A DNA stretch of 64,000 nucleotides from the IMG/VR virus record IMGVR_UViG_3300037067_008306, positions 977 through 64,976 of that record; one strand, 5' to 3'. The position numbers were made by a program, and so were the translations under genes. Below are positions 4,001 through 37,970 of this stretch, in pieces. The notes below the pieces were generated by a model. The model made no database searches. It was not told where the DNA came from and worked only from the letters and a program-made list of their open reading frames with translations. This DNA is from a virus (taxonomy: Duplodnaviria > Caudoviricetes). Numbering within the stretch: the first letter of the stretch is position 1; the number at the start of each line of letters is the position of its first letter.

Positions 4001-4545
4001 TTTATATTTCTATATTTTCCATTTAAGAAAATCCCATCATAGAAGATTCCCTCTAAAGTCATTCCGAGTTTCATACAAAGTTTATTCATACCTTCATTAC
4101 TGGATGCCGTTCCTGTCCAGATGCGGTGTAGGTTCAATTTATCAAATCCATGCTTGAATAGTATTGTTAAAGCCTCAAATCCAATACCGGATTTCCAATA
4201 ATCTTTTTCTCCGATAATGATTGCAAATTCGGCACTTCGATATATCCAATTGATTCTTTGTAGGGAAATATTTCCTATGTGCTGTTCCCAATACCTTTTT
4301 CGCTTTTTATCTACATATTCTATTTTTTTATAAACTATCCCCCAAACAATATCTTCTTTCCCTGATTCACACATATCAAGATACTTTTCAAATCTTTCTT
4401 TTCCATAAGGGAAAAGACCATGTGAATTATACCGGGTTACTTCAGAATCATAAAACCATTTTTTATATTTGGATTCTGTTTCCTGAATCAGTTCCCGGTT
4501 GAACGGTACTAGAATAAATCTTTCTGTTTCATAAATTATTTGCAT
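3955..4545 (-). CDS. GNAT (RimJ/RimL-type) N-acetyltransferase, PseH-like
   Basis: HIGNISLQRINWIYRSAEFAIIIGEKDYWKSGIG and LNLHRIWTGTASSNEGM are RimL-type motifs; adjacent to pseB. Confidence 0.8.
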   Translation of the reverse strand: MQIIYETERFILVPFNRELIQETESKYKKWFYDSEVTRYNSHGLFPYGKERFEKYLDMCESGKEDIVWGIVYKKIEYVDKKRKRYWEQHIGNISLQRINWIYRSAEFAIIIGEKDYWKSGIGFEALTILFKHGFDKLNLHRIWTGTASSNEGMNKLCMKLGMTLEGIFYDGIFLNGKYRNINCYSIMEDHWKQINR

Positions 4546-5494: not shown

Positions 5495-6140
5495 AATATA
5501 TTATCTCCTTAGCAAATAATAATTCTTTTTTCATTTCCTCTATACTTTCAAAAGTAGCTTCCAGAATAATAGGATACTTTTTCAAATTCAGATTAAATCG
5601 AAAACAATCTTTATAATGCATAGGAATATGTTTTTTAACCGGATCATATCCTGAGAAATGAATCTGTTCAATTTGTCTTTCATACTTTTTGAAATATTCA
5701 AAAGCTCTTCCGGGAAGAGATAAGGCATGAGCTATATCAAAACATACAGCATCAGAATTTAAAAAAGGATATTCATGACCTTCTATATTTTCAAATAAAA
5801 GGCTTTTCCAATATTTTTTTATAAAGTCCTCAGTCAGAATTCTTTTTTTATCAATGTGGCAGATAAATTTATTTATGAAAGGAAGTTGCTTTATTACTTT
5901 CATTGTATCTGTATGGCATTGGGTCAGGTGATAGCTTAGATACTTCATTCCACAAAGCCATTTATAATTCTCTTTGGAAAGCTGAAAATGTTCTTCCTGC
6001 TCCGGGGTCATTACTAATTCTAAGGCATTAAAATATCCGATTTCCTTTTGATAATTCCGCCACCATGTTATATAATTATCAGCGGCAACAGGTGTTCCAG
6101 ATACTTTCCAACAGCTTCCGATACTGAATCCTATTTGCAT
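5487..6140 (-). CDS. TIM-barrel metalloenzyme (xylose isomerase/AP endonuclease 2-like)
   Basis: ENI..., CFDIAHA, QIHFSG, IILEA metal-ligand pattern. Confidence 0.6.
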   Translation of the reverse strand: MQIGFSIGSCWKVSGTPVAADNYITWWRNYQKEIGYFNALELVMTPEQEEHFQLSKENYKWLCGMKYLSYHLTQCHTDTMKVIKQLPFINKFICHIDKKRILTEDFIKKYWKSLLFENIEGHEYPFLNSDAVCFDIAHALSLPGRAFEYFKKYERQIEQIHFSGYDPVKKHIPMHYKDCFRFNLNLKKYPIILEATFESIEEMKKELLFAKEIIYYA

Positions 6141-6961
6141 GGTTCAGCCTCCAGTTTAGTAGCCTGTATTTTATTATTTATTTTTAACAATTCCGGATTC
6201 TCCTGAAGGTAATTTATTACTTCATCATAATGAAAATGTATTCCTTCAAAATGTTTATATATTTCTGTAATCACTTTCAGGTCTTCCAGGGTGTCTAGAG
6301 TCAATCGCCATTCCGGAAAATAATGTTCCGGCTTTGCCTGCATATTTATTATCCGGGGTTTGGGATTTAGATTTTCCCGACAATGCCAGATATTCCAGCC
6401 TGTCCAGTAGGGCTTCCAATACAGTCCGTGCATATAAGTTTCCCCATATACTTCTGTTGTATATACCTGAATATCAAAACCGTCAGGAAAAGATCGAGTA
6501 ATACAATTCGCGGAATAGTCAGCTTTATAATACATTAAATCTTCAATCAATCTGTCCGCGAGAAAGGGATCAAAGAGAGAACAGCAATGGCTTATATCAA
6601 CTATAATATCTATGTTGAAAGTATGAGCAGCATTTAAGGTTCTCTGAAAAATATTATTATGATTTCCAGAATACATATTAACTTTAGTATTCCTGTCTTC
6701 ATTATGTATTGTACTATACCAATTTAATATCTCTGCACAATCACCTTCCGACACAGCAAGAATAATTTTCTTTATATATTTTGATTGATTTGCTCTTTCA
6801 ATAATTCTTTCCAGGTTAGATTTTCCATTTATATCAATCAATACTTTTCCCGGCAGCCGTTCACTGTGATAGCGGGTAGGGATTATTAGTCCAATATTAG
6901 GATTAGATTTCATTATATATTTCCTCCAGTTGTTTAGGTGTACGTGCAAAGGTCCCGGCAT
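6131..6961 (-). CDS. SpsF/PseF-like cytidylyltransferase (copy 2); true start probably MKSNP
   Basis: IIPTRYHSERLPGKVL, DYSANCITRSFPDGFDIQV, RLTLDTLEDL. Confidence 0.8.
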   Translation of the reverse strand: MPGPLHVHLNNWRKYIMKSNPNIGLIIPTRYHSERLPGKVLIDINGKSNLERIIERANQSKYIKKIILAVSEGDCAEILNWYSTIHNEDRNTKVNMYSGNHNNIFQRTLNAAHTFNIDIIVDISHCCSLFDPFLADRLIEDLMYYKADYSANCITRSFPDGFDIQVYTTEVYGETYMHGLYWKPYWTGWNIWHCRENLNPKPRIINMQAKPEHYFPEWRLTLDTLEDLKVITEIYKHFEGIHFHYDEVINYLQENPELLKINNKIQATKLEAEPCK

Positions 6962-7625
6962 CGGGGCCTGTAGAATCCTCTAACTTAAAATGGCATTCGT
7001 AAGCAACTGGTTTATATTTCTGGTATAAATCCCAGTTGGTTGTATGATCTGAAATACCTTTTTTTAATTCTTGTTTATAGTGATGATGAGAAGGGTTTTC
7101 TCTTTCTTTATAAAATTCTTTTTCATATTGTTTTAAGTAAGCAGGATAATGAGATACACAACATAAAATAATATTATTTTTAATTTTATTCCAATTTCTT
7201 TTGTATGTAAAAGGATCATTTTCATCTACTCTTTTTTTAGTAAAATCAAAGCCTGTAATAAAAGGTTTTGTTACATCCCAACTTATTATCACAGGAATTT
7301 TTCTAGGCACTTCCCCGATCAGCCAATATAAATCCGGTCTGTTAGCAATCTTAATAAATGGAACATCATAATTTAAAAGAAATTTTAAAGACTCGAGATC
7401 AAAGACAGAAGCTGTTGTTTTGTATCCGAGTTCCTTTGCATGATTATAAATATAATCAAAGGCTTCCCATTCTAAAGGAATATTATCCCCTGCCTGTTTA
7501 AAGAGTTGCCACTTGATTATAAATTTTCTTTTGGGATCAATTTGAGAAAGACAATTAACCATATGTTCCATGTAAGAAATATTATTCTTTCCCGTGTTGC
7601 CTGAACCGAAATCTAAAATAAACAT
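6903..7625 (-). CDS. NeuB/PseI-like nonulosonic acid synthase, divergent, lacking the C-terminal AFP-like domain
   Basis: KWQLF, ASVFDLESL, FIKIA, CVSHYPA, GISDHT, ECHFKL, GPD match the NeuB barrel; only 240 aa. Confidence 0.75.
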   Translation of the reverse strand: MFILDFGSGNTGKNNISYMEHMVNCLSQIDPKRKFIIKWQLFKQAGDNIPLEWEAFDYIYNHAKELGYKTTASVFDLESLKFLLNYDVPFIKIANRPDLYWLIGEVPRKIPVIISWDVTKPFITGFDFTKKRVDENDPFTYKRNWNKIKNNIILCCVSHYPAYLKQYEKEFYKERENPSHHHYKQELKKGISDHTTNWDLYQKYKPVAYECHFKLEDSTGPDAGTFARTPKQLEEIYNEI

Positions 7626-7969
7626 TATTGGATCTCCTTTTTACATTCTGACAATTCCCATTCTCTAACTATCTTTTCTTCATATAAAGAATTATTTGTA
7701 GTGGCATTTCCCCCATGTCCTATTCCTGTACTTCCCCCAATAGCAATTTGAATTTCTGATTTTTTATCATTTGCAAAATTCACCATATACCAAAATTGAG
7801 GTGTGTTATCATCAGCCCATGCATCAACATTATTATGAACAAAAGAAATAATTCCTTTTCTCCCATCCAATTTCATACAAACAATATCTCCAACTTTATA
7901 TTTAGCTGGAATAGTTCTTTCACAACTTAGAAAAGATAATAAAATAATTAAGAATATAAATTTTCTCAT
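7625..7969 (-). CDS. predicted lipoprotein/secreted hypothetical protein
   Basis: MRKFIFLIILLSFLSC signal with lipobox-like Cys; very AT-rich, no CCGG. Confidence 0.5.
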   Translation of the reverse strand: MRKFIFLIILLSFLSCERTIPAKYKVGDIVCMKLDGRKGIISFVHNNVDAWADDNTPQFWYMVNFANDKKSEIQIAIGGSTGIGHGGNATTNNSLYEEKIVREWELSECKKEIQ

Positions 7970-9270
7970 ATCAATTCCTCCCGGTTCTCAAAGACCTTAT
8001 AAAAAGCATCTGATATATCTTTTCTGTCCTGATCGTTAAGATCAAGACCGTTAAGCGTCCATAGAAACAAATCCTCTTTCCACAGCCTTTCAGCTACTGG
8101 GCAAGGCATTGCATTATAGTTATGATCCTTTAATGCCCAGTGTTTTCTATTCTGAAATAAAGGCATTTTATAAAGAGGCTTAATATATCCGCAACCTATG
8201 GGCACTCCCAAATCCACCCGACCTTCCTGCGGTTTAAGCTCCGCTTTCACCGCCTGGATAAATTTATCCCTATGTATTCCATCCATCATATCAGAATTAT
8301 AAAAGAAAGCCTGAACATAAAAAGAATGAATACATCCCGTGCGAATCGGGGCGGGAGTAATTCCCGGAATCTTGCCTAATTCATTCATAAAATAAAAAGC
8401 ATTAGCCTGTCTTCTGTAAACAAATTCAGGAAGCTTTTTTAATTGTTCCATGAGAATAACTGCCTGTAATTCCGTTAAGCGCATATTAAATCCAATCATG
8501 TTTTCTACATCTGTATACATATCATTATTCATATCGGAAATAACAGCCTCAGCATGATTCCTTAATAGCTGAAGATTTGTTTTATATTCTGAATCAATAG
8601 ATACGGCCATGCCCCCTTCCCCGGCTGTCAAGTGTTTTCCCTGCGTAAAGCTGAAGCATCCTATATGTCCTAGAAAGCCAGCCGGAATATTTTTATAATA
8701 AGATCCTATTGCCTGAGCGGCATCTTCTATAATTATCAGGTGATGCTTTTTAGCAATCTCAAGAATTTCTTCTGCAAAGGGCTGTCCGAATAGATCGACT
8801 ACTATTATGGCTTTGGTCTTTTCTGTTATTCTTTGTTCAATAGAAATTGGATCAAGACAGAAATACAGAGGCTCAATGTCTGCAAATACCGGGGTTGCTC
8901 CGTATATTATCGGGGCTGTAGCTGAGCAGGACATGCTCCACGGAGTTACAATGACCTCATCCCCCGGCTGCAATCCTATCGCGCCACAGGCGAGCTGTAA
9001 TGCAGATGTACAGCTGTTTACTGATATAGCTTCCCATCCATCCTTTTTCTTAAATACATTTTTAAACATATCCTCAAACTGTCGGACATAATGACCACCA
9101 TAAAAGGCTTCCGAGCTATTCCCCCGGAATCCGGAAAGCGGTTGATGATTTCCAACTACCTTTTTCATTAAGGATTCTACAGCATCCTTTTCCTCTTTTC
9201 CTATTGTTACCTGAGCAGGTAATAAACCATTGCGGATAGGTATTCCCCCATTGATGGCTAATTTGTTCAT
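7966..9270 (-). CDS. DegT/DnrJ/EryC1/StrS PLP aminotransferase, PseC-like
   Basis: NSCTSAL, IIEDAAQAIG, FSFTQGKHLTAGEGG, GFNMRLTELQA. Confidence 0.9.
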   Translation of the reverse strand: MNKLAINGGIPIRNGLLPAQVTIGKEEKDAVESLMKKVVGNHQPLSGFRGNSSEAFYGGHYVRQFEDMFKNVFKKKDGWEAISVNSCTSALQLACGAIGLQPGDEVIVTPWSMSCSATAPIIYGATPVFADIEPLYFCLDPISIEQRITEKTKAIIVVDLFGQPFAEEILEIAKKHHLIIIEDAAQAIGSYYKNIPAGFLGHIGCFSFTQGKHLTAGEGGMAVSIDSEYKTNLQLLRNHAEAVISDMNNDMYTDVENMIGFNMRLTELQAVILMEQLKKLPEFVYRRQANAFYFMNELGKIPGITPAPIRTGCIHSFYVQAFFYNSDMMDGIHRDKFIQAVKAELKPQEGRVDLGVPIGCGYIKPLYKMPLFQNRKHWALKDHNYNAMPCPVAERLWKEDLFLWTLNGLDLNDQDRKDISDAFYKVFENREELI

Positions 9271-9272
9271 TG

Positions 9273-10277
9273 CTATTCTCCTTTTAAGTGTTCTATTATT
9301 TTATGTACTTGTAAAGCGTCTTCAGGTTTGCATAAACTATTATTAAAATAATTCATTAAAGTTGGTGATAAAAGATATGATAAAACATTTTGTAATAAAT
9401 ATTCCAATGATCTATTCAATTGGGTCTTTGTTCTGCTTTCCATATCCTTAGAAAGAATTTTAAATCCACCCCAGATCGGTTCCTCAATCAGCGGATAAAA
9501 ATCAATATACATTCCGTGCTGACTTAATATTATTTTTCCTTTTTCGGTCATTATTTCAAGCTGAAATACTTTATATTGTCTCCCATCGCAGGGGGAAAGA
9601 AAAATATGATGGCAACTTTTAAAAGATAGATAAGCAGCATAAGTTGAATCATTTTTATCTCTGTCAGGTATGCCGTGACCAGGTTGCTCTATATGACCCC
9701 CTTCATATTCTCCAAATAGGAATCTGCATAAATCAATCCCATGACACATCTCGTGGCGAAGGCCTCGCGTGTAGTGGAAGGTTGCAGAATATATTTTTCC
9801 ATATTTCTCATTATCAATATCCTTTTTAAGTTGCTGAATTTCCGGGACATATCGCCGTGGATAATTTATGATAATAGGGATATTTGCTTTCTTATATGCT
9901 TCAATAACTTCTTCAGCTTCCTTTGAGTTACTACAGAAAGGCTTTTCAGCTATGACGATTTTGGGATTTACTTCATATTGTAAAATATCAAGTAAGACTT
10001 CTTTATGTGTTTCAGTTGGGGTACAAATAGATACAATATCAATTTGTTCTTTTTCCCAGTCAATGTCCGTAAAATCTAAGTCCCATTTACATTTCCATTT
10101 ATTACTCGCAGAAACAGACCGTTCTATAATTTTATCAAATATTCCTACTAACTCAACTTCAGGATGATTATGATACATATGAGCATGAGTCAGTATATTC
10201 TCTCCGCCGGGAGAATCATATTTATCTTCTTTTATTGCCCCAATACTGCCCGCACCTATTACAATTGCTTTATACAT
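9273..10277 (-). CDS. Gfo/Idh/MocA NAD(P)-dependent oxidoreductase
   Basis: IGAGSIG Rossmann motif, ICTPTETH, AEKP, NYPRRY. Confidence 0.85.
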   Translation of the reverse strand: MYKAIVIGAGSIGAIKEDKYDSPGGENILTHAHMYHNHPEVELVGIFDKIIERSVSASNKWKCKWDLDFTDIDWEKEQIDIVSICTPTETHKEVLLDILQYEVNPKIVIAEKPFCSNSKEAEEVIEAYKKANIPIIINYPRRYVPEIQQLKKDIDNEKYGKIYSATFHYTRGLRHEMCHGIDLCRFLFGEYEGGHIEQPGHGIPDRDKNDSTYAAYLSFKSCHHIFLSPCDGRQYKVFQLEIMTEKGKIILSQHGMYIDFYPLIEEPIWGGFKILSKDMESRTKTQLNRSLEYLLQNVLSYLLSPTLMNYFNNSLCKPEDALQVHKIIEHLKGE

Positions 10278-10416
10278 TTTTATTCCTTTTATCTAAAATA
10301 TTATTTATTTTAGTCACTATATTCAAACATTCATTTCTTAATTCATATAAATCTTCTTTTGTTAAAAGTTCCAAATCAGGATAGGTTAAAAGTTTTTTGA
10401 TTTTAATATCATCCAT

Positions 10417-11154
10417 TTATTCCTTCCCCGGTACTTTCTGCTGTACCCTTTTATTTATTTCTAATAGATGTAAATTCTTTTCCAAAAACTTTATAACATC
10501 CCCCGCACTGAATTTATTATTTTTAAAATGATCGAAAATAATTCTCATCAATTGGTAATCGGCTTCCTCATCAATGCACAGTCTCCAGTCCTGATAATCT
10601 TTTCCATAGATAAAACTGAATTGTTTCCGGTGATCTTCCCGGATCATTATGTTCCAGCCGGAATGGGTCTTGTGAACATAATTAGTTATTTCATTAGAAG
10701 CTATTAAAAGGGTTGTAGGAGAATATATTTGAATATCAAATCCGCGCGGATAGGATCTATTTATAACATTGCTGACATAGGTAAAAGCAGGGAAGTTTTT
10801 AAACTTCTTTACCATTACATCAATATGCTTCGGATCAATCAGAGGACAGTCTGCTGTAACATCTACAATAGCCTGCACCTTATGATATATACAGGCATTC
10901 AGAATATTATCCAGAACAAATTCCTTTTTTCCTCTCCAGCATTTACATCCCATTCTTTTAGTAAATACTTCCAGAATATTATCTTCCGGCTCGTCAGTAG
11001 TTACAATTAAAATATCATCTACTGTCTTTGCTCTTTTTATTCTTTCAATGAGATGCTGAAGTACTGGCTTATGTTCCTTACCCAACGGGTATAGAACCTT
11101 GCCCGGAAGCCTATTGCTACCCATACGTGCCTGTATTACTGTCGTGATTTTCAT
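10417..11154 (-). CDS. SpsF/PseF-like cytidylyltransferase (copy 1)
   Basis: IQARMGSNRLPGKVL, DVTADCPLIDP, YPRGFDIQ, RLCIDEEADY. Confidence 0.9.
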   Translation of the reverse strand: MKITTVIQARMGSNRLPGKVLYPLGKEHKPVLQHLIERIKRAKTVDDILIVTTDEPEDNILEVFTKRMGCKCWRGKKEFVLDNILNACIYHKVQAIVDVTADCPLIDPKHIDVMVKKFKNFPAFTYVSNVINRSYPRGFDIQIYSPTTLLIASNEITNYVHKTHSGWNIMIREDHRKQFSFIYGKDYQDWRLCIDEEADYQLMRIIFDHFKNNKFSAGDVIKFLEKNLHLLEINKRVQQKVPGKE

Positions 11155-18083: not shown

Positions 18084-19004
18084 TTATTGCATTACTGATC
18101 TGAAAGCCGATAGTATCAATCCGGCTTTTCCGCTGTCATAATAATTATCAGTAAAATTTTCAATAATCATAGCCGATCGCAGAGCTGTTTTCTTATCCTT
18201 AGAATTTAAAGCAATGGTGGTAAAATATCCCAGCACAGCGCGCCGAATGGATTCAGGTTCTGCTTCTATACTTTTTATTATTCCTGCTATTTGATTCCAT
18301 GCCCTTCCCTCGTTGAGGGCCCGGCATAAATCTATGACCTGCTTCTGGTCTGTCTTTATAGATTGAATTATCTTGATTGCTTTATCTGCTTCTTTAATCC
18401 CGATAATTTGTTGCAACATTATTAAGGCTTGTCGGGGGATTCCTTCCGATTCCTCTGCTATCTTTTCCAGTACATCTATATTGATTTTTATTTTCCGGGG
18501 AGAAAGAACATTGTCCAGTAATCTCATTATCATCTTAATATTTAATTTATGAACCTCAAACCTGGAACATCTATTTAAAATAGTCTTGAGCAGTTTCTCC
18601 GGCTCCGTAGTACACAAAATAAAAAATACATGTTTTGGAGCATCTTCCAATGCCTTAAGCATGGCGTGCTGGAAATCCTTTGTAGTGGCATGAACCTCAT
18701 CCAGTATATAAACTTTACATTTGCCCTGAAGTGGCTTGAAAGACATCTGAGAAATAATATCACGGGCAGTATCTATTCCTCTATTATTGCTCGAATTTAG
18801 CTCGATCCGATCATATTCAGAACATCCTAATTCATTGGCCACTATACGGGCCAGGGTAGTCTTCCCACAGCCCGTCAGGCCGGAGAATAGGAACGTATGT
18901 GGAGGGTCTTTCTGCTGTAATAAAGACTGTAAGGATTCTACAGTGTCCCGGTTTCCTATTATCTCATTAAAAGTTTTAGGTCTGAATTCAATATTATAAG
19001 CCAT
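18084..19004 (-). CDS. dnaX: DNA polymerase III gamma/tau-like clamp loader ATPase
   Basis: FRPKTFNEIIGN, GLTGCGKTT, ILDEVH, CTTEPEKLLKTILNRC. Confidence 0.9.
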   Translation of the reverse strand: MAYNIEFRPKTFNEIIGNRDTVESLQSLLQQKDPPHTFLFSGLTGCGKTTLARIVANELGCSEYDRIELNSSNNRGIDTARDIISQMSFKPLQGKCKVYILDEVHATTKDFQHAMLKALEDAPKHVFFILCTTEPEKLLKTILNRCSRFEVHKLNIKMIMRLLDNVLSPRKIKINIDVLEKIAEESEGIPRQALIMLQQIIGIKEADKAIKIIQSIKTDQKQVIDLCRALNEGRAWNQIAGIIKSIEAEPESIRRAVLGYFTTIALNSKDKKTALRSAMIIENFTDNYYDSGKAGLILSAFRSVMQ

Positions 19005-19173: not shown

Positions 19174-21672
19174 TCATATTTTTATTTCCTCCATTTCTGC
19201 CCAGTTCCCATTCACATCAGAAATTTTTGCATCTATATTCATAGGCACGATAATCCATTTCCAATGCTCCAGTAAATCTATTGTACTGATTTTCCGGATA
19301 ATAGGAAATAGCTTTTTCTTTTCTTCCGGGACAAGATCAAATATCTGTGAGTCATGTATCTGTCCCAGGATAGTAGTATCAAAATTATTTTCAGGTAAAT
19401 ATTTTTGTAATTGAATTAAGCTCCATAGCAGGCAATGAAATGCCGGGCCCTGAATAGGATAATTGGCAACTTGTTTCCTGTCTAAATGCCCTGAAATCTT
19501 AAATCCGGTTACTGTATATATTACTCCGTCTTTTTGAAACTTTTTCCAGATGTCTTTTTTCCATTGATTGTAAACCCGGAAACGCTTATTCCAAAAATCA
19601 TCTTCCACTTCCTGAACATGTCTTTCCCATTTAGAATACTTACTAAAAGGGATTGAGCCTTCAGGAGAATTTTTCCAGAGTGCTTCAGCTGTCATTACAT
19701 AATAGGAACCATAGAACTCAGCAAAAACAAAATTGTTTTTAGCGGCATATCTTTCATCTTTGCTGACTTCCTTTTTTATAAATAATTGCTTCGCTACATC
19801 CCGATGCATATCGGAAGTTGGGTCATTTATATATTTAATCATTACAGGGTCTTTATGGACACAGGCTGATACGCGTACTTCCATTCCGGAATAGTCCACT
19901 TCCAGTAGTTGCCGACCGGGGGAAGGCTTTATTCCTGACCGGGTATACTTCTGTGCTTCCTCGTCATGCACCGGGACATTCTGGAAGTTCGGCCCATCTG
20001 AACTCGATCTATAAGACTTGACCAGATTCAGATTGAAAGAAGGATTCATTTTCCCATTAAAAGAATTTCTTAAAAAGCCTGTCAGGTAAGTTCCTTTTAT
20101 TTTATCCAGTTTTTTAAATTGTAAAATCTTATCTGTAAAGGGGGTTGCTATTTTCTTTAATACTTCCTGATCTGTAGATTCATTATCCCCGCCTTTTGTT
20201 TTCTTGATGGAATTATATCCCAGGTCAATAAATAATAATTGTCTCAATTGATTGGAGCTATTAAAATTAAATTCCCCTTTCCAGTTTTCTAATTCTTTAC
20301 TAGCAAGAATTTTTTTAGTGAGAAGGTTTTGTTTTTTAGTAATATCTTCAATTGTTCTTTCATAATACTTAGTATCAATACAAATTCCCTTTTGCTCAAT
20401 ACTGGAGAAGGCTTGCTGTCCTTCCATAAATAAATTAAATCCTTTTATGTTTCCTTTTTCCAGGCCCTGATCTAAAAATAATCTGTAGGAAAATATAGTA
20501 TCCATTCCGCAATATTCTAACATTGAATCAAGTGGAACTTCCTCCATCCGGTTAAATCCATAAGAGTCATCGCCAACTAATTCAATAAAGTTTTCTACTT
20601 CTTTATTATAACTAGATACTCCGTAATGAACATAGGTCTGAAATTTTAATCCTGTTATTCCGGTCTGAAGGTCTTCACAATGGGCAGCAATCATTGTATC
20701 CCAAATCCAACCTTCAATATTACAATTTAAAATTACTGAACTCCATATATTTTCAAATTTGATATTATGCCCGATCTTTTTAATTTTGGGATTCTTCAGG
20801 AACTTTTTTAATGACAACATAAAACTTTTGTCTTCATAGAAGATTGGGAAAGCTGTCGCGCTTTCTATTCCAGTAGACACTGCCATACATAATATCTTAT
20901 GCCCTGGGGCTTGGGGCTTCTTTCCGGTAGTCTCAAAGTCAATAGCCATAGGAGTCAAAGAAGTTTTCAATGAATCTAAAAATATAGAAGCTTCTAATGG
21001 CTTTGTTAATTTAACAACATTTGTTTTTATTTTCGGAAATTCTTTGTTCCAGTCAAACGCTTCTCTCAATGCTTTAATAAAAATCTTTCTTAATACAATA
21101 TCATCTTTATTATAGTTCAGATATTGGGGGTGATTATTAGGGAATATCCAACATCCCAAATCCTGATCCGGGATCTTCCACCCTACCCACTTTTCAATTC
21201 CTTTGAGGTCTTCCTTTTCACCTATGAGGGATTGAAGAGGGGTCTTGCCAAGTGTAATTATCTTTTCGGGTTTTAATTCCTGAATAGTTTTGAATAGGTT
21301 AGGTCGGCAGTAATTGATCTGCTGATTTGTGGGGGTTTTATTTCTCCCCCTGTCATCTATTGATCGGCATATTATCGCGTTAGTAGCAAAGCAATCTCTC
21401 CTGAAATCAATTCCTATTTCATCGAGACATTCCCAAAGAGTACCTCCAGCTTCAGCTTCTCTTACAAACTGCATTCCCTTTTCATCTTCTTTCCGGCCGG
21501 GAGCTTCCCCGATAATAAGAATATTCTTTTTCCCCCTTCCAGTCACTTTCATTTTTGGGGTTCGACATTTCTTGTACAATCCGCAAGCCTCACAGGGATT
21601 AGAAAATTCCTGAACTTTCTTTTTGCTGGTAGATTTCCGGGGCTTTTCTTTTTCTACAAAGAAACCTTTCAT
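19174..21672 (-). CDS. polA: family A DNA polymerase with N-terminal family-4 uracil-DNA glycosylase-like domain and 3'-5' exonuclease
   Basis: UDG4: CEACGLYKKC, GEAPG, NAIICR, HPQY; exo: DFETTG, HNIKFE, YCGMD; pol: DYSGMEVR, RYAAKNNFVFAEFYG, NYPIQG, QIHDS. Confidence 0.95.
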   Translation of the reverse strand: MKGFFVEKEKPRKSTSKKKVQEFSNPCEACGLYKKCRTPKMKVTGRGKKNILIIGEAPGRKEDEKGMQFVREAEAGGTLWECLDEIGIDFRRDCFATNAIICRSIDDRGRNKTPTNQQINYCRPNLFKTIQELKPEKIITLGKTPLQSLIGEKEDLKGIEKWVGWKIPDQDLGCWIFPNNHPQYLNYNKDDIVLRKIFIKALREAFDWNKEFPKIKTNVVKLTKPLEASIFLDSLKTSLTPMAIDFETTGKKPQAPGHKILCMAVSTGIESATAFPIFYEDKSFMLSLKKFLKNPKIKKIGHNIKFENIWSSVILNCNIEGWIWDTMIAAHCEDLQTGITGLKFQTYVHYGVSSYNKEVENFIELVGDDSYGFNRMEEVPLDSMLEYCGMDTIFSYRLFLDQGLEKGNIKGFNLFMEGQQAFSSIEQKGICIDTKYYERTIEDITKKQNLLTKKILASKELENWKGEFNFNSSNQLRQLLFIDLGYNSIKKTKGGDNESTDQEVLKKIATPFTDKILQFKKLDKIKGTYLTGFLRNSFNGKMNPSFNLNLVKSYRSSSDGPNFQNVPVHDEEAQKYTRSGIKPSPGRQLLEVDYSGMEVRVSACVHKDPVMIKYINDPTSDMHRDVAKQLFIKKEVSKDERYAAKNNFVFAEFYGSYYVMTAEALWKNSPEGSIPFSKYSKWERHVQEVEDDFWNKRFRVYNQWKKDIWKKFQKDGVIYTVTGFKISGHLDRKQVANYPIQGPAFHCLLWSLIQLQKYLPENNFDTTILGQIHDSQIFDLVPEEKKKLFPIIRKISTIDLLEHWKWIIVPMNIDAKISDVNGNWAEMEEIKI

Positions 21673-23388: not shown

Positions 23389-24108
23389 CTATAATGTTGT
23401 ATATATATTATAAACCATTTCTGGATTAAGTCTCATTTTAAATTTGTATAAATCCGGATTGTCTAAGCTCCCCCCGTCATTTACTTTCTTTCCGGAATTT
23501 AATATTTCCGGATCGGTGTAAAATCTATATCTCATATATTCACTCAGGAAAGGGATGTTCTGACAAAAACAATATCGATAATTTATGAACATATAATTTT
23601 CATCCCATATATTAACCCCATAGATATTATCATTGTCAAATAAAAATCTTTTATTCTTTCCGTCTGTTACATATTTCAGAATTACATCGTCATCATGTAT
23701 TACTTCATCTGCTTTTCTATTATTTAGCCAACATGACAAGGCTTCTAATCCCCCCTGAGCCCCGAAAAGCTCTTCATAAAATAAATTTTTATTTACGGGA
23801 AATTTTTTTATATTCTTTCTAAACACAGTCCACTTTCCCCCGGATAAATTTAAAAAGGCTTTAGGGTCATAAATGAAATTATGATCCAGAAATTTTTCTT
23901 GACTCCTTTCTTTAAAAGGAAGGGATGCCCAATAAGGAATAACTGGAAGAATGGGAAGAGAGGGCAACATATTTATTCCTTCAGAATCCTGAATTCTTAT
24001 TATTCCCAAATCGTCTTCTATTTCTTCCCATCCAGCCTTTTCAAAATATTCTTCACTACACCAGAAGTTGGGAACAATTTTATTTTTTTCTAACAGTTGT
24101 AGATACAT
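23389..24108 (-). CDS. DUF2156-like GNAT-fold protein (MprF C-terminal, aminoacyl-tRNA-dependent transferase superfamily)
   Basis: NFIYDPKAFLNLSGGKWTVFRKNIKKF and VNDGGSLDNPDLYKFKMRLNP resemble the DUF2156 DY.Y..L.G....RN.I..F and IN...G..GL...K..Y.P motifs; no membrane domain. Confidence 0.6.
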   Translation of the reverse strand: MYLQLLEKNKIVPNFWCSEEYFEKAGWEEIEDDLGIIRIQDSEGINMLPSLPILPVIPYWASLPFKERSQEKFLDHNFIYDPKAFLNLSGGKWTVFRKNIKKFPVNKNLFYEELFGAQGGLEALSCWLNNRKADEVIHDDDVILKYVTDGKNKRFLFDNDNIYGVNIWDENYMFINYRYCFCQNIPFLSEYMRYRFYTDPEILNSGKKVNDGGSLDNPDLYKFKMRLNPEMVYNIYTTL

Positions 24109-24241
24109 TTTCTTTTATCAACCCCAGATTACTTGAATTAGAAGTCTTACTTTTGTTAATACATTTCTCTCCCTGCTGCGCTTTAATTCTTTGTATTAAA
24201 GCCTTGCTCACTCCCCCAGTCTTTCTGCTTTTCCCCCCCAT
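24080..24241 (-). CDS. 53-aa basic peptide MGGKSRKTGGVSKALIQRIK... (not in the ORF track)
   Basis: hand translation; TAATG overlap with the upstream stop and GGAGG SD 8 nt upstream. Confidence 0.6.
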   Translation of the reverse strand: MGGKSRKTGGVSKALIQRIKAQQGEKCINKSKTSNSSNLGLIKENVSTTVRKK

Positions 24242-24966
24242 TATTTTTCCTCCGTTAAATAGTTAATCGTGCCCAGGTCATCATACAAGCACGTGGCAAT
24301 AAATCCGGTCATGTTCATTTTATCTCCCTGAAAATAAACAAAGCCCTTATCAGATATTTGGAAATCAATTTTCTGAACGAAAGTAAACAGCCCCAGAAAG
24401 TCCCCTGTGCGTAGTCCTATGGCAGACGTGTTCTTGATTATCTTATCCGAGTGAAGTTGAAAGATCCCTTTGGATTCTTTCTTTTTCACATTGATAAGGG
24501 TTCCTGTAAATATGTCGCGCTGTACCAGTTCAAATTCCCCTTTCTGCATTATTATTTCTACATGAGACAAATTCTCATCCAGGACTTCCTTCACTGAAGA
24601 AGTGATAGTCACCTGATTACACTTGTCCAGACTGGCTTTCATTTTCTTATACAATAGATTCATCTTTTTAAAAGACATATCTGGAGTGCGGCAGCTTTTC
24701 TTTCTTTCATATTCTTCATTCCCGGAAATGAATATGATCTTTCCATTCTGTTCCTCAAACTGACTGGACTCATAATCATTAGCATAAAAAGAATAATCTC
24801 CGGGAAAAAGATTTTCCTTTATTTTAAAATGGATTAAGATAGTAGAATCAGCATTGACTATTATTACCTGATCCCCACTACAACATATTATATTTTTAGA
24901 TCGGCTATTCTGTTCCAGTGCTACTGCTAAGGCAAATAAATTTTCTACATAAGATTTGATTTTCAT
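24241..24966 (-). CDS. hypothetical protein (possibly degenerate clamp-like beta fold)
   Basis: 241 aa, translationally coupled to the MTase; no recognised catalytic motif. Confidence 0.55.
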   Translation of the reverse strand: MKIKSYVENLFALAVALEQNSRSKNIICCSGDQVIIVNADSTILIHFKIKENLFPGDYSFYANDYESSQFEEQNGKIIFISGNEEYERKKSCRTPDMSFKKMNLLYKKMKASLDKCNQVTITSSVKEVLDENLSHVEIIMQKGEFELVQRDIFTGTLINVKKKESKGIFQLHSDKIIKNTSAIGLRTGDFLGLFTFVQKIDFQISDKGFVYFQGDKMNMTGFIATCLYDDLGTINYLTEEK

Positions 24967-25034
24967 TTTATTATCTTTCCTCCGGATTTTTTAAATAATT
25001 CTCTTTTATGCCTTTTCTTAAATTCCTGAATACG
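24961..25034. repeat. 74-nt direct repeat, copy 2
   Basis: 71/74 identical to 21667-21740. Confidence 0.95.
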
Positions 25035-25649
25035 TTTATCTGCCTCTTGATAATAATATTTATCCGTTTCAAAAGCAATATAATCATATCCTTCCTCGAT
25101 GCATGCACAAATTAAAGATCCGCTTCCCATATGAGTATCTAAAATCAATTGCCCCGGTCGGGCATACTTTTGCAGACACCATTTATATAACGCTATGGGT
25201 TTTTGTGTAGGATGAATTTTTATTTCTTTCTCTTTTAAATTTTCTTGAAGAAAACCATTCCATAAATATCGAAATATTCGTACATGGTTTTCCAAACCAC
25301 AAAAAGCTATTTCTGCATCAGAAAAAGAACTGGTAGAATTTTTTTTGTCCCATATAATTCTCCCGGGTCCTATATATTTTATATGAAAATAATTTATTCC
25401 CCATATAATTTGATTAGCACTGACTTTTAATAATTCATTAAAATAATTTTGTTTTGGAACTTCCCATTTTTCTATGGACGAATAATCTATATATTTTTTA
25501 GAATTACCCCCTTTATAATAATTTTTTTTATTAGGTCCTGAAAAGAATGGGGGATCTACTATTGCTAATACTTCTCTATTTAATTCAGGAATAAAAGGCA
25601 TTCCCTTCATACAATCTATATTATATATAGTATTGATTTTTAATTTCAA
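24963..25649 (-). CDS. second beta-class N6-adenine/N4-cytosine DNA methyltransferase (TTG start)
   Basis: DPPF, HPTQKP, DTHMGSGS. Confidence 0.9.
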   Translation of the reverse strand: MKLKINTIYNIDCMKGMPFIPELNREVLAIVDPPFFSGPNKKNYYKGGNSKKYIDYSSIEKWEVPKQNYFNELLKVSANQIIWGINYFHIKYIGPGRIIWDKKNSTSSFSDAEIAFCGLENHVRIFRYLWNGFLQENLKEKEIKIHPTQKPIALYKWCLQKYARPGQLILDTHMGSGSLICACIEEGYDYIAFETDKYYYQEADKRIQEFKKRHKRELFKKSGGKIIK

Positions 25650-27040
25650 TTTAAAATTCCTTCCACAAGTTCTTTTCGGAAATCTGTTTCTCTATAAGTC
25701 CATACAATCCCGTCTTGATCATTTCCATAGGCTTCAATTCCTTGAGCCCAATTTAGGAACCATGCAGCATCCCCCCGGAGATTCCATAATTGCTTTACAT
25801 CAGCTTTTATATCCTCAGAAAGAAATCCTCCTTTCTTAGTTACCCATTTTTCAAAATCCCCCCATGTGGTGGGTTTTCCCTTTCTGCTTACGATAAACCG
25901 GATTGCGCTTGTTCCGCAGCCGTAATTAAAACCACCTTGAAACCAATCTCCCACACTGCAGCATATATCATCAGCATTAACAGGAACATTCCCCGCGTCA
26001 AACGTACTGCAATGAATTCCTTTCTCTTCAAAATATTCCATCATCTTTCCGAGCATGAAAGAAGATATGGCCTGAGCTTCACTGCTTAAAGAAAACATTC
26101 TTCTGAAATCAATATCAGCCTGAGAGAAGGAAGAATCAATTGAAGAACTATTTGCTGAATAGGAATATGTGTCCCATGTTATATGCTTCACCCCGGCTTC
26201 TTTCATCTTCCCAATATAATGATCCACCTTATCTTTTTCATCATTTATAAAAATCATAAAGGGTTCAATCCGGGCAATAGCTCTTATTCCGGCCCCAGTA
26301 ATATTTTTCAAAGCCTTCCACCGTCTATCGAAAGACGGTGCCCCAGGCTCAATTCTTTTTAACAATTCATTATCAGAAGAAATAAGGGTGATGTGAACTG
26401 CACTCCGGGCCTTGTTAGAAGATAATGCTTTCAAATAAATATCTTCCCCCACCAGGTCAGACTTTGTATTGATCATTACTGGATAAGAATATTCAGATAA
26501 ATATTTTAACAGTTGTAATGATATACCTTCCTTTTTTTCTATTGGGGCAAAATCCTCAAACCGGATTCCCAGCCTCATAGGTATTTCCATGCGTACAGCA
26601 TTGAGCACCTTGTCTGTTAATACTTCTTTCTTTCCCCGGTATTTCATAACTCGGTCTAGTTCCTTTTTATATGATTCTACATTACAGTGACGAAATTTTA
26701 TTTGATTTGGATTATCAAAAAAACTTGTGTACAAACTATATTTAAAATAATCCGCATAACAATACCGGCACTGAAAGGGGCAATGTAACCCATCCCATAC
26801 ATCTATGTTCAGGGGCATGGGACAGCTCTGCGCCCGAAGAGATACTTCCAGAAAGCTTTTTATTTCAGAAGTATCTAACAACCTTTCGATCTTCTTAAAT
26901 TCCTTATCCTGAAGATGGAATTGTTGATAATTTTTCTTTCTCCCCTTTTCCTTCATTTTATTCTTTTCTGAAGGTTTGTAAAACTTAGAAACACGGGGAA
27001 GCAGTTTTTTTAATTCTTTTCGGTAATCCCAATAGTTCAT
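25646..27040 (-). CDS. radical SAM enzyme, spore photoproduct lyase-like
   Basis: CPMPLNID..., CPFQCRYC cluster motif, MINTKS, EPGAPS...R, ARIEP. Confidence 0.85.
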   Translation of the reverse strand: MNYWDYRKELKKLLPRVSKFYKPSEKNKMKEKGRKKNYQQFHLQDKEFKKIERLLDTSEIKSFLEVSLRAQSCPMPLNIDVWDGLHCPFQCRYCYADYFKYSLYTSFFDNPNQIKFRHCNVESYKKELDRVMKYRGKKEVLTDKVLNAVRMEIPMRLGIRFEDFAPIEKKEGISLQLLKYLSEYSYPVMINTKSDLVGEDIYLKALSSNKARSAVHITLISSDNELLKRIEPGAPSFDRRWKALKNITGAGIRAIARIEPFMIFINDEKDKVDHYIGKMKEAGVKHITWDTYSYSANSSSIDSSFSQADIDFRRMFSLSSEAQAISSFMLGKMMEYFEEKGIHCSTFDAGNVPVNADDICCSVGDWFQGGFNYGCGTSAIRFIVSRKGKPTTWGDFEKWVTKKGGFLSEDIKADVKQLWNLRGDAAWFLNWAQGIEAYGNDQDGIVWTYRETDFRKELVEGILN

Positions 27041-28089
27041 TTGAATAGTCCTTTTTCTTTTATATCCTTCAATGAATACATTCCCGGCTTTTTTCCCTCA
27101 AACAATTTCTTTCCCTCTTCATAATCCCCGATTCCATCCCATGATTTTTCTAAAATAGAATATGAAAATCCAGTTTTTTTCATTATCTTTTTCCAGTACA
27201 CCACGTTGAAGGTAGTAGGCTTCTTTACATTCACCCCGCAGCATGTGTTAGAGTCTTCCTGATAAGAACCGGAGTTGACGAAATCCGGGCAGCCTAATCG
27301 GATATTATATTTTTTAGCAATAGCAATGAGCTGGGGTAATATTTTTTTCCATTGAGCATCCTGATTCATAAACCATATTTTTTCAATGTCCAATCCAATA
27401 TGATGAAGATTCTTTGCCACCCAATCATTTAGATGAAGATTGTATGTATTGTAACTTTTTATTTTACAAGTTTTTAAAAGTTTTATTATATCTTCAAAAT
27501 CCTTTACGGTGTGAAATCCGGGAATGAATGGCTCCCCATTTACCCCGACATTCAAATTTTTTCTTTGTAAATGAACAGCGTGTTTCAATCGCATCATGGG
27601 GGGAGTGGTTGCCCCTTTCTCTAATACTTCCCAGTCCCGATCTAAGCCAGGAGAAATTACTGGCATTATATTTGCTTTCATAGATAAGAGAATATCTTCA
27701 TCTGCCATTAAATTTTCCGTGAATCTAGTCTGAATAATTACATCCCAATGATACTTTTTAAGAATTTGAAGGGCTTTTCTTGTAACTCTCTTAGTTTTTT
27801 CCACAGTCTGATATGGGTCTGTCTTGTTCCCCACCCGGATTGTGTTCCTATTATGTATAGCAGTGGAGATAGATGCCCTGGGAGATGTATTTTTAATACC
27901 ATTTTCCAGCTTTTTTCGGAAAAGTTCAATATCAAGTGGTTTTAAATCATTTCCCCACACGTGGTTGAGCCTTCGGAAATAACAATGATAGCAATATGTT
28001 AAACAGTTACCATATGTATCTAAAGTAAAGGAAAGAGGACAATATAAACTATCTCCCCGGATTCCCAATCCATTTTTTAATTCTTTCAT
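27037..28089 (-). CDS. radical SAM enzyme, spore photoproduct lyase-like (second paralog)
   Basis: CPLSFTLDTYGNCLTYCYHC, GNKTDPYQ, EKGATTP..R, NGEPFIPG. Confidence 0.85.
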   Translation of the reverse strand: MKELKNGLGIRGDSLYCPLSFTLDTYGNCLTYCYHCYFRRLNHVWGNDLKPLDIELFRKKLENGIKNTSPRASISTAIHNRNTIRVGNKTDPYQTVEKTKRVTRKALQILKKYHWDVIIQTRFTENLMADEDILLSMKANIMPVISPGLDRDWEVLEKGATTPPMMRLKHAVHLQRKNLNVGVNGEPFIPGFHTVKDFEDIIKLLKTCKIKSYNTYNLHLNDWVAKNLHHIGLDIEKIWFMNQDAQWKKILPQLIAIAKKYNIRLGCPDFVNSGSYQEDSNTCCGVNVKKPTTFNVVYWKKIMKKTGFSYSILEKSWDGIGDYEEGKKLFEGKKPGMYSLKDIKEKGLFK

Positions 28090-28922
28090 GCGCCTATGTT
28101 CCAGAATAAAATATTTTTATTTTTGGGAAGCTTTTCGATATTTTCTGTTAACCATTTCCACGCCTTGAGATCATAATAAGGATTACAGGGAAAGGGACAA
28201 TCTATTTTTACAAAATCCTTGTATTGATATCCTTCATCTATGATTTCCATTTCAATTCTAGTGTTTCCGGGATGTGCTATATTGGGTTGTAATATTTTAT
28301 TTAATTTATTATAAACAGTTTCATAGCTTCGGGAATACCCCATATGAATTATAAAATAATTATTGCTATTAGTTAAATTAAATCCTTTCATCACTCCTGC
28401 TGTTATTGTACCAGAAGAAATAGAAATAATTACAATGGTGTCTTTTTGAAATTTTATCGGGGTATAATAAAAAGCCTCCCCACAATTCTCTTCAATGCTT
28501 TCCGGGATTTGTAAAGCATTGGGCATCATGTAACTATCTTCATGCATTTCTTTTAATTCTTTTTTTGCCTGATGATATAATATAGCACTGCGCCCGGCTT
28601 GTAAAGGAACAACCCCGGCTTTTTCTTCCTGACATTTTCTTTGTAAGGGCCGAAGCTTTATTTCACCTTTATACTTAGGATAAAAGACAACCACGTGCTT
28701 CCCCAAGTCTCTTCCTATTACGCTCACAGCCCACCCCGCCTTGCTGTGGAAGGTGTCCAACACCCCAATTACAGATTCTTTTCTCTTTTTTAAATGAGAA
28801 TAAATTCCCCGTGCTTTAGAGAAAGAAATGCGATCAATGCATAAATCCTCTCTTTTAACATACACGGTTCTGCCTTTTATTTTATAAGGCACAATCGGGG
28901 TGTTGTTCCTGATTTCAATCAT
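28086..28922 (-). CDS. fold-type II PLP-dependent enzyme
   Basis: VYVKREDL, FSKARG (PLP lysine), HSKAGWAVS, ISSGTITAG, CNPYYDLKAW, LFWNIG. Confidence 0.8.
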   Translation of the reverse strand: MIEIRNNTPIVPYKIKGRTVYVKREDLCIDRISFSKARGIYSHLKKRKESVIGVLDTFHSKAGWAVSVIGRDLGKHVVVFYPKYKGEIKLRPLQRKCQEEKAGVVPLQAGRSAILYHQAKKELKEMHEDSYMMPNALQIPESIEENCGEAFYYTPIKFQKDTIVIISISSGTITAGVMKGFNLTNSNNYFIIHMGYSRSYETVYNKLNKILQPNIAHPGNTRIEMEIIDEGYQYKDFVKIDCPFPCNPYYDLKAWKWLTENIEKLPKNKNILFWNIGA

Positions 28923-37400: not shown

Positions 37401-37970
37401 TTATTTATCCATTAGAAAAGTTAATATTTTTTTGCCTCTTTCATTCCACCATTCTTGTTCATTATGTTTAATAGATAAATCAATCTGGAATTGCTCATTA
37501 GACCATATTTCCATAGAATGAATTTCACATCCGATACGGATAAAAGTTGTTTCTGTCTCAGTATCAAAATATATATTGCAAGAATATTTTGAAATAATAC
37601 ATTCTATCCGAACATCAGAGTCTATCCGAACACCAGAGCCTATCCGAACACCAGAGCCTATCCAAACACCAGAGCCTATCCGAACATCAGAGTCTATCCG
37701 AACACCAGAGCCTATCCGAACACCAGAGCCTATCCAAACACCAGAGCCTATCCAAACACCAGAGTCTATCTGAACATCAGAGTCTATCCGAACACCAGAG
37801 CCTATCCGAACACCAGAGCCTATCCAAACACCAGAGCCTATCCGAACATCAGAGTCTATCCGAACACCAGAGCCTATCCAAACATCAGAGTCTATTTCAA
37901 TTGATAGTTCAATCAACTTTGAATCTCCCCGTTCTACTTCAATCCATTCTTTTTTGTAATAAATTTTCAT
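37401..37970 (-). CDS. hexapeptide-repeat (left-handed beta-helix-like) protein
   Basis: 15 x V[RWQ]I[GD]S[GD], then an IRIGCEIH..E.W domain. Confidence 0.85.
   Translation of the reverse strand: MKIYYKKEWIEVERGDSKLIELSIEIDSDVWIGSGVRIDSDVRIGSGVWIGSGVRIGSGVRIDSDVQIDSGVWIGSGVWIGSGVRIGSGVRIDSDVRIGSGVWIGSGVRIGSGVRIDSDVRIECIISKYSCNIYFDTETETTFIRIGCEIHSMEIWSNEQFQIDLSIKHNEQEWWNERGKKILTFLMDK
37614..37883. repeat. 18-nt tandem repeat, 15 units
   Basis: units such as ACCAGAGCCTATCCGAAC / ATCAGAGTCTATCCGAAC; no unique spacers. Confidence 0.95.

Follow-up and report, generated by a model that had tools for sequence, protein, structure and literature searches.

To our knowledge, all characterised hypermodifications of thymidine start from 5-hydroxymethyldeoxyuridine (5hmdU), which is then processed by a kinase and a dedicated transferase. 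A compact set of genes on the minus strand of the tailed-virus record IMGVR_UViG_3300037067_008306 raises the question of whether a modified thymine can also be reached from a different beginning. The stretch analysed here, referred to below as the window, comprises 64,000 nucleotides and is the 64,976-base IMG/VR record minus 976 bases. The module in question occupies positions 23,389 to 28,922 and encodes a pyridoxal phosphate (PLP) enzyme, two radical S-adenosylmethionine (radical SAM) enzymes, a DNA methyltransferase, a 241-residue protein, a 53-residue peptide and a stand-alone 239-residue protein that resembles DUF2156. A first-pass annotation, made from the letters and open reading frames (ORFs), had proposed that the DUF2156-like protein loads an amino acid from aminoacyl-tRNA onto a base and that the PLP and radical SAM enzymes then remodel it.

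The known pathways provide the yardstick. Their 5hmdU is made before replication by a thymidylate synthase homologue or, as recently shown, by oxygen-dependent dioxygenases (PMC13229309). In phage M6, the amino acid:DNA transferase (ADDT) gp51 and the 5hmdU DNA kinase gp54 make Nα-glycinyl-thymidine from 5hmdU, the radical SAM enzyme gp53 isomerises the Nα- to the Cα-linked form, and gp52 decarboxylates the latter to 5-(2-aminoethyl)uracil; the pathway, named for its nucleoside 5-(2-aminoethyl)-2'-deoxyuridine (5-NedU), also includes the dUMP hydroxymethylase gp58 (PMC8989533). The module described here retains downstream enzymes of this kind without those starters, in a clade of more than 100 metagenomic phage contigs. 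The most likely explanation, in which we place middling confidence, is that it is a post-replicative DNA hypermodification module that builds an amino-acid adduct on the C5-methyl group of thymine and then tailors it. The end product in this phage would be an amine resembling 5-(2-aminoethyl)uracil, and the first step of the pathway may be new chemistry.

Tailoring enzymes and the variable slot

The PLP enzyme is, judged by its sequence, a homologue of M6 gp52, the decarboxylase of DNA-bound glycine. It matches phrog_7093 (E = 9.9e-72) and PALP (1.4e-8), and shares 46.5% identity with gp52 over 99% of its length. Its 67 matches in GenBank phages are all full-length, with Pseudomonas (M6/YuA-like) and Bordetella phages at the top of the list and Bordetella phage LK3 the best (47.2% identity). 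Next to it, as in M6, lies the gene for the smaller of the two radical SAM enzymes, which by profile comparison is a remote homologue of the GlyT isomerase gp53 (hhalign probability 96%, E = 1.4e-9 over 256 columns). The first-pass annotation had likened these steps to the glycine-reworking enzymes of M6, and in this it was right.

The surroundings of these genes were followed in related phages from two directions. The DUF2156-like gene led to 84 loci (80 IMG/VR contigs and four places from other assemblies), and in a reverse test the larger radical SAM gene led to 65 loci, each with at least 3 kb of downstream sequence. The order is fixed: small radical SAM enzyme, a variable slot, big radical SAM enzyme, clamp-like 241-residue protein, peptide, DUF2156-like protein, beta clamp, polymerase fused to a uracil-DNA glycosylase (UDG), clamp loader; it recurs in more than 100 metagenomic phage contigs. 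Among the 84 loci, the clamp-like gene is found in 79, the peptide motif in 80, the beta clamp in 81, the UDG-polymerase in 79 and the big radical SAM gene in 74. In the reverse test, the DUF2156-like, clamp-like and peptide genes are each present in 65 of the 65 loci. The conservation of the neighbourhood in IMG/VR, which the first-pass annotation had named as a check on its proposal, is borne out in a large clade of phages. Since all loci belong to this one clade, the counts do not represent independent events.

The PLP gene is the exception to this regularity, occurring in 31 of the 84 loci and in 37 of the 65. It is an accessory tailoring step, exchanged elsewhere for a flavoenzyme like gp47 of phage PaMx11 and other genes. 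The slot between the two radical SAM genes may hold, in relatives, either a gp52-like PLP enzyme or a flavin adenine dinucleotide enzyme together with an aldo-keto reductase; in others it contains an FtsJ-like gene with or without an aldo-keto reductase, a gene for a 223-residue protein, or nothing. One such flavoenzyme (L077:5612-6553) is 27% identical to PaMx11 gp47 at 91% coverage (E = 4e-22). It has 20 phage matches, each covering at least 80% of the query, and those listed are mostly from Pseudomonas phages, PaMx11 included. In PaMx11, Nα-glycinyl-thymidine in DNA is converted by gp47, a flavin lyase (PMC8989533).

The exchange of a PLP enzyme for a flavoenzyme in this slot is the same exchange that sets M6 apart from PaMx11. 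Of the comparative arguments that the product of the conserved core is an amino-acid adduct of thymine in DNA, this is the strongest. Tailoring enzymes for DNA-bound glycine are represented by homologues of gp52 and gp53 in the window, and of gp47 in its relatives.

Absence of the known 5hmdU front end

The contig has a CheckV completeness of 58%, so that the window alone could not prove the absence of anything, and because of this possible incompleteness 20 related IMG/VR records were searched alongside it. Twelve of the 20 reach a completeness of 90% or more, and terminal repeats are present in six, five of which are among the twelve. The first-pass annotation had reported no 5hmdU machinery on the strength of the window, a basis too narrow for the claim, but the claim itself holds in the complete relatives.

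PF00303, the family of the thymidylate synthase homologues and dUMP hydroxymethylases, is missing from the contig and from all 12 complete relatives, and its single occurrence among the 20 related records is a broken frame. Neither PF18748 (5hmdU DNA kinase, for which PF18723 is a further family) nor PF18724 matches any of the 21 records, while both were found in M6 as a positive control; the latter search covers ADDT/aGPT-Pplase2 and was not extended to the other aGPT-Pplase clades. PF12851 (TET/JBP) has no match in the contig or in the related records, the 12 complete ones included. Searches of the 84 loci by phmmer with M6 gp54, gp55 and gp51 gave nothing, and the minus-strand arm of the window has no spare Walker-A/P-loop protein. 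By these searches, the known source of 5hmdU, the 5hmdU kinase and the amino acid:DNA transferase all appear to be absent from the complete relatives.

A pathway of the known type might nonetheless operate with a front end that escapes recognition. The 5hmdU would then come from a divergent thymine dioxygenase, a ThyX-like hydroxymethylase or the host, and activation and transfer would fall to unrecognised proteins, possibly encoded in the missing part of the contig. The degree of completeness leaves room for this, as do several ORFs of the window that have no assignment. ThyX, a dTMP synthase, is present in five of the 21 records (and inside the module in seven of the 84 loci), and dCMP deaminase in four of the 21. 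The dioxygenase profile is also imperfect, in that about 17% of phage 5mYOX contigs carry no PF12851 annotation (PMC13229309). Set against these points are the 12 nearly complete relatives, which lack the thymidylate synthase homologue, the kinase, ADDT and TET/JBP alike in searches whose kinase and transferase controls were positive, and the lack of a spare P-loop protein in the arm. Moreover, each protein of the conserved core has an assigned fold, and none of these is that of a kinase, an ADDT or a dioxygenase. We consider a concealed front end of this kind to be distinctly improbable.

Two radical SAM enzymes

With the usual starting enzymes missing, attention falls on the members of the core that M6 does not have, of which the second, larger radical SAM enzyme is one. 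The motif CX3CX2C begins at residue 29 of the small enzyme and at residue 87 of the big one, and is invariant in both families. Each protein has four further conserved cysteines (C17, C267, C283 and C284 in the small enzyme; C73, C119, C360 and C361 in the big one), a pattern that would accommodate a second cluster, gp53 itself holding about two (PMC8989533). The big enzyme matches Radical_SAM (4.2e-7) and phrog_13321 (6.6e-23), is 49-64% identical across the clade and is a distant paralogue of the small one (21% identity). Its relation to gp53 is weaker (hhalign probability 79%, E = 1.6e-5) and visible by profile comparison alone, the BLASTP comparison being not significant.

Beyond M6 the two enzymes have few neighbours. 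Both fall near the SplB-like NCBIfam families PA0069 and Rv2578c, far under the cut-offs (best PA0069 scores of 55-59 bits against a cut-off of 360). Sequence and profile searches of the PDB with both enzymes gave nothing meaningful. No homologue of the small enzyme was found in GenBank phages, and the big one has only two weak, partial matches there, in uncultured 'Bacteriophage sp.' records from human faeces. Searches of Pfam and NCBIfam families returned no SPASM or RRE match. The reaction of spore photoproduct lyase (SPL) on DNA proceeds by way of a thymine methyl radical.

The radical SAM genes and their neighbours are also subject to insertion. In some relatives an intein (Hint/Intein_splicing) interrupts the big radical SAM gene (L005:6185-8663, and the modules of L040, L041 and L072), and genes for GIY-YIG homing endonucleases are inserted at several points of the module. 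The interval from the DUF2156-like gene to the beta clamp can also hold additional genes (L006:11021-12481, L014, L018, L074 and L083): in some relatives a third SplB-like radical SAM enzyme, of 484-520 residues, is encoded there, and in one relative a gene resembling 3'-phosphoadenosine 5'-phosphosulfate reductase is present. The sole match to TIGR03886, at 17.5 bits, is to a third radical SAM paralogue in a relative.

A stand-alone protein of the DUF2156 fold

The second addition to the core is the 239-residue protein, which the first-pass annotation had called DUF2156-like. Although the window protein itself has no Pfam match at E ≤ 0.1, the assignment stands both for the family and for the fold. 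PF09924 (LPG_synthase_C/DUF2156) is matched by 31 of 47 homologues, with a best E-value of 4.5e-7, and the family profile matches the DUF2156 structure 2hqy at 1.7e-5. The AlphaFold2 (AF2) model has a mean predicted local distance difference test (pLDDT) score of 96, and its 27 Foldseek matches at E ≤ 1e-3 are chains of 2hqy, the MprF C-domain, L-PGS/A-PGS, FemX and Sbb17/Sba18, the last two being peptide synthases that depend on aminoacyl-tRNA. E-values for the transferase-fold matches range from 6e-8 to 3e-5 with template modelling (TM) scores of about 0.6; acyl-CoA-dependent GCN5-related N-acetyltransferases (GNATs) appear only above 1e-3. Relative to the double GNAT-like fold, the first lobe is shortened. 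The protein thus has, according to its model, the DUF2156/MprF-C/FemX fold and is a putative aminoacyl-tRNA-dependent transferase.

This family is sizeable. A first search gave 138 homologues and an exhaustive one 457 clusters at 50% identity. The 150 representatives listed are 228-307 residues long and hence stand-alone; a search for longer, fused DUF2156-like forms found none, and the membrane flippase domain and lipid acceptor of MprF proper are not features of these proteins. No homologue was found in GenBank phages, and we found no literature report linking DUF2156 to phage DNA modification. The precedent that the first-pass annotation had cited, of Mu Mom using Gly-tRNA to modify adenine in DNA, does not hold: Mom uses acetyl-CoA and iron, and fragmentation data for its nucleoside ruled out glycyl-adenine, the product expected from glycyl-tRNA chemistry (PMC7261163).

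One relative separates the transferase from the rest. Record G017, a complete genome of 64 kb with terminal repeats, keeps the DUF2156-like gene, the beta clamp and UDG-PolA. It has no radical SAM gene (no ORF with CX3CX2C at all), no PLP gene, no clamp-like gene and no peptide. From this gene content it follows that the radical SAM enzymes, the clamp-like gene and the peptide were lost or gained together. Its DUF2156-like gene (L056:9379-10777) is preceded by an unrelated ORF of 206 residues, which was considered as a diverged clamp and rejected at an hhalign probability of just 0.7%.

G017 lends substance to a different division of labour, in which the radical SAM enzymes and the tailoring enzyme make up the whole pathway (the big enzyme coupling, for example, free glycine to the thymine methyl group) and the DUF2156-like protein is an enzyme of the replisome with an unrelated acceptor, whether protein or nucleotide. 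In keeping with this, the DUF2156-like gene adjoins the beta clamp gene in every case, directly upstream of it, although such adjacency is weak evidence because all of these genes share one replication operon. The reverse test tells against such a separation, as all 65 loci found through the big radical SAM gene also carry the DUF2156-like gene. The conserved core, moreover, contains no other enzyme that handles amino acids, and at E < 1e-3 the transferase fold matches solely enzymes that transfer amino acids. We hold a transferase unconnected with the pathway to be unlikely, though deserving of more weight than a concealed front end.

The polymerase that accompanies these genes varies in the clade: the fusion partner of the UDG domain is PolA, a split PolA or PolIII-alpha (PHP/DnaE; e.g. 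L002:13579-16830). Fusion to several types of polymerase suggests that selection has repeatedly favoured having a glycosylase at the fork, and UDG-fused polymerases have been described as a mark of thymine-modified phages (PMC13697223).

A second sliding clamp and a conserved peptide

No role had been given to the 241-residue protein and the 53-residue peptide in the first-pass annotation, which had listed them among the genes of the operon. Both belong to the core. A profile search of the PDB with the 241-residue protein gave nothing meaningful. Its AF2 model (pLDDT 90) has a two-domain sliding-clamp fold, for which Foldseek returns yeast PCNA (2.7e-9) and the T4-type sliding clamp of Synechococcus virus S-PRM1 (8.3e-10) with TM scores of 0.55-0.65. 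On the evidence of this model it is a T4 gp45/PCNA-like sliding clamp, and with the beta clamp encoded nearby the phage would have two clamps.

The peptide is the product of a real, conserved gene, and is conserved as well as the enzymes. Its N terminus, MGGKSRKxGGxS+xLI, is near-invariant, with G2, G3, K4, S5, R6, K7, G9 and L15 the invariant residues, and the motif GGKSRK is found in 80 of the 84 loci, while the enzymes of the module have diverged to 31-64% identity. A Lys-rich linker follows, and then a short hydrophobic motif near the C terminus (NLGLI in the window), which elsewhere in the family is of the types GLGL, LFD and LLDE. Clustering of hydrophobic residues in the tail is seen in 49 of 53 sequences, compared with 23 ± 3 when the tails are shuffled, and we take the tail motif to resemble clamp-binding motifs. 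An ESM Atlas search with the peptide returned only unnamed clusters, below 0.9. A three-chain complex prediction for the 241-residue protein, the 239-residue protein and the peptide scored 0.20 against a mark of 0.32, a value that tells nothing either way.

Small peptides beside radical SAM enzymes are typical of clusters for ribosomally synthesised and post-translationally modified peptides, and the target of the module might on this account not be DNA. The DUF2156-like enzyme would aminoacylate the 53-residue peptide, and the radical SAM and PLP enzymes would rework it into a modified peptide or small molecule. The near-invariant N terminus would suit such a scaffold, and enzymes of the FemX and Sbb17 types acylate peptides or small amines. 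This reading has much to overcome: the tailoring enzymes are homologous to gp52, gp53 and gp47, which have been shown to act on DNA; the radical SAM enzymes are SplB-like, with no SPASM or RRE match; the core includes a protein of the sliding-clamp fold; the module is located between helicase and polymerase; and G017 lost the peptide yet kept the transferase. We regard a peptide product as very improbable, the least likely of the explanations discussed.

A possible route from thymine in finished DNA

How the preferred hypermodification pathway might begin can be stated tentatively. In the scheme that we put forward, to which we give appreciably less credence than to the existence of the pathway itself, the radical SAM enzymes would act without O2 on the methyl group of ordinary thymine in finished DNA, an enzyme of the MprF/FemX type would use aminoacyl-tRNA, and the whole machine would ride on its own clamp by way of an adaptor peptide. 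Thymidine would be incorporated normally; the presence of ThyX inside the module in some relatives fits its being put in first. The UDG domain, which keeps the motif GEAPG (residue 55 in UDG-PolA), would keep uracil out, as has been argued for thymine-modified phages (PMC13697223). The big radical SAM enzyme would abstract hydrogen from the methyl group of thymine in DNA, the position at which the radical of SPL chemistry forms, and then oxidise the carbon, by way of an auxiliary cluster, to the hydroxymethyl or methylene level.

Aminoacyl-tRNA would be the source of the amino acid, brought in by the DUF2156-fold enzyme. MprF forms esters with hydroxyl groups, and an ester of this type on the 5-hydroxymethyl group would replace both phosphorylation and ADDT in that it would serve for activation of the carbon as well as delivery of the amine. 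Through an O-to-N shift it would become Nα-aminoacyl-thymidine with a free carboxylate, which the small radical SAM enzyme would isomerise as gp53 does and the PLP enzyme would decarboxylate to a 5-NedU-like base. The gp45/PCNA-like protein and the peptide would tether the enzymes to the DNA.

Several considerations weigh against this picture. The identities of the modified base, of the amino acid and of its donor are in each case inferred. Aminoacyl-tRNA transferases usually form an ester or amide via the carboxyl group, a product that by itself is no substrate for an α-decarboxylase, and we know of no precedent for the O-to-N shift proposed. The big radical SAM enzyme resembles gp53 or SPL just distantly. 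The genes share a replication module within one phage clade, so that their co-occurrence is partly inherited, and G017, in keeping the transferase without the pathway, indicates that the transferase need not act only in it. An unusual activity of ThyX, where it occurs, is conceivable, and PF12851 misses part of the phage thymine dioxygenases. The interpretation of the first-pass annotation, that of loading followed by remodelling, accordingly stands in part: the transferase fold, the co-occurrence of the genes and the missing front end speak for it, while the PLP enzyme has turned out to be accessory and the transferase persists alone in G017.

Relation to known systems

Hypermodification of phage thymidine is already known as a kind, and it is the front-end chemistry that is possibly new. 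The likeness to M6 extends, beyond the two tailoring enzymes, to an action that is probably post-replicative and on DNA. It ends at the thymidylate synthase homologue, the kinase and ADDT, which are not found here, and at the additional core of a second radical SAM enzyme, DUF2156-fold protein, clamp-like protein and peptide; the substrate is probably thymidine rather than 5hmdU. The PaMx11 pathway, which leads to 5-acetylaminomethyl-2'-deoxyuridine (5-AcNmdU), consists of the ADDT gp46, the flavin lyase gp47, the acetyltransferase gp48 and the kinase gp49. Relatives carry their gp47 homologue in the slot that holds the PLP gene in this phage; the window has no such homologue, in the relatives that do it is accompanied by an aldo-keto reductase and both radical SAM enzymes are retained, and the module phages have no ADDT or kinase.

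To MprF, PGS, FemX, Sbb17 and 2hqy the 239-residue protein is tied by its fold and by the PF09924 matches of its family, and it differs from enzymes of the MprF type in being soluble, in its reduced first lobe, in having no membrane domain and in its place in a phage replication operon. Elp3 combines a radical SAM and a GNAT domain, and adds an acetyl-CoA radical to C5 of tRNA uridine; it thus resembles the present system in bringing together an acyl-donor-binding GNAT-type fold and radical chemistry at a pyrimidine C5 substituent. Mu Mom is a GNAT-fold enzyme with DNA (adenine) as its substrate. In contrast to both, the proteins here are separate, the lineage is that of DUF2156 and not of the lysine acetyltransferases (KAT), and the donor is probably aminoacyl-tRNA instead of acetyl-CoA. 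Elp3 and Mom are mechanistic analogues only, with no sequence relatedness behind the comparison.

The SPL/SplB-like proteins (COG1533; PA0069/Rv2578c) have both radical SAM enzymes in their neighbourhood, share CX3CX2C with them, and are set apart by the low scores, the extra conserved cysteines and long extensions of the module enzymes, and the lack of a repair context here. Finally, the phage thymine dioxygenases (5mYOX, TET/JBP) also start from thymine in finished DNA and feed hypermodification (PMC13229309). They depend on iron, 2-oxoglutarate and oxygen, and none was detected here, whereas the proposed radical SAM route would be independent of oxygen.

Gene chain and flanking features

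The genes of the module form part of a tightly packed minus-strand chain that runs from a 62-nucleotide gap after dnaB (29470) to the clamp loader (18084), as summarised in Table 1. Neighbouring genes overlap by 1-29 nucleotides or stand 2-8 nucleotides apart, and the coupled operon described by the first-pass annotation is for this reason real. The promoter that it had placed at the head of the operon exists as a match to TTTAAA-16-TATAAT and is a candidate only, because such sites are not enriched over shuffles (58 in the region against 49 ± 7).

Table 1. Genes and promoter-like site of the minus-strand chain, in window coordinates
Feature	Coordinates	Strand	Basis or remark
Promoter-like site TTTAAA-16-TATAAT	29463-29436	-	In the 62-nt gap after dnaB; candidate
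Lys-rich ORF, 162 aa	28919..29407	-	Head of gene chain; no family match
PLP enzyme, 278 aa, fold type II	28086..28922	-	phrog_7093, PALP
Small radical SAM enzyme, 350 aa	27037..28089	-	Motif CLTYCYHC; phrog_13321
Big radical SAM enzyme, 464 aa	25646..27040	-	Motif CPFQCRYC; Radical_SAM, phrog_13321
N6/N4 DNA methyltransferase, 228 aa	24963..25649	-	PF01555 (5.9e-17)
Clamp-like protein, 241 aa (predicted)	24241..24966	-	AF2 and Foldseek
Peptide, 53 aa	24080..24241	-	Conserved N terminus
DUF2156/MprF-C/FemX-fold protein (predicted), soluble, 239 aa	23389..24108	-	Family profile and AF2/Foldseek
Beta-type sliding clamp, 333 aa	22379..23380	-	phrog_947 (4.6e-31)
Second N6/N4 DNA methyltransferase, 237 aa	21669..22382	-	PF01555 (8e-17)
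UDG-PolA (N-terminal family-4-type UDG)	19174..21672	-	UDG, exonuclease and PolA domains all match
Clamp loader, AAA+	18084..19004	-	DNA_pol3_delta2 (2e-23)

For the Lys-rich ORF at the head of the chain, the more probable start is the ATG at 29407, which follows an AAGGAG ribosome-binding site. The ORF was ruled out as a member of the module, having homologues in just two of the 84 loci. Both N6/N4 methyltransferases are accessory and the 228-residue one is an insert; a methyltransferase gene is found in about 15 of the 84 related loci. The window encodes no tRNA genes.

Elsewhere in the same minus-strand arm (window 1104-11154) lies a pathway for a nonulosonic-acid (pseudaminic-like) sugar, with genes for a PseB-like dehydratase, a DegT aminotransferase, a GNAT, a short NeuB, two cytidylyltransferases and a Gfo/Idh/MocA oxidoreductase, together with an 897-residue MptE/Maf-like protein bearing TPR repeats. 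A hexapeptide-repeat, left-handed beta-helix (LbH) acyltransferase is encoded at 37401-37970, directly upstream of an SNF2-type helicase; it could be part of the sugar pathway or, by analogy with PaMx11 gp48, acylate an amine-bearing base. Over the whole window (1-64000, GC content about 35%), CCGG occurs 341 times, against 89 for GGCC, 55 for GCGC and 58 for CGCG. Its observed/expected ratio is 1.08 under a second-order Markov model, and since that expectation takes up most of the CCGG excess, CCG and CGG are themselves enriched.

Implications

The transferase family of this clade alone spans hundreds of protein clusters. If the proposed pathway is correct, it would provide an example, open to testing, of a C-H activation of thymine in DNA that needs no oxygen, the first in which a radical SAM enzyme starts a DNA hypermodification by this means, and a possible link of the translation apparatus, in the form of charged tRNA, to DNA chemistry, the first such use of charged tRNA in DNA modification. 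It would also present a modification machine that owns its sliding clamp, and new enzymes for the site-directed functionalisation of DNA. Screens for hypermodified phages that use the thymidylate synthase homologue, kinase and ADDT as markers would, in that event, miss a whole group of them.

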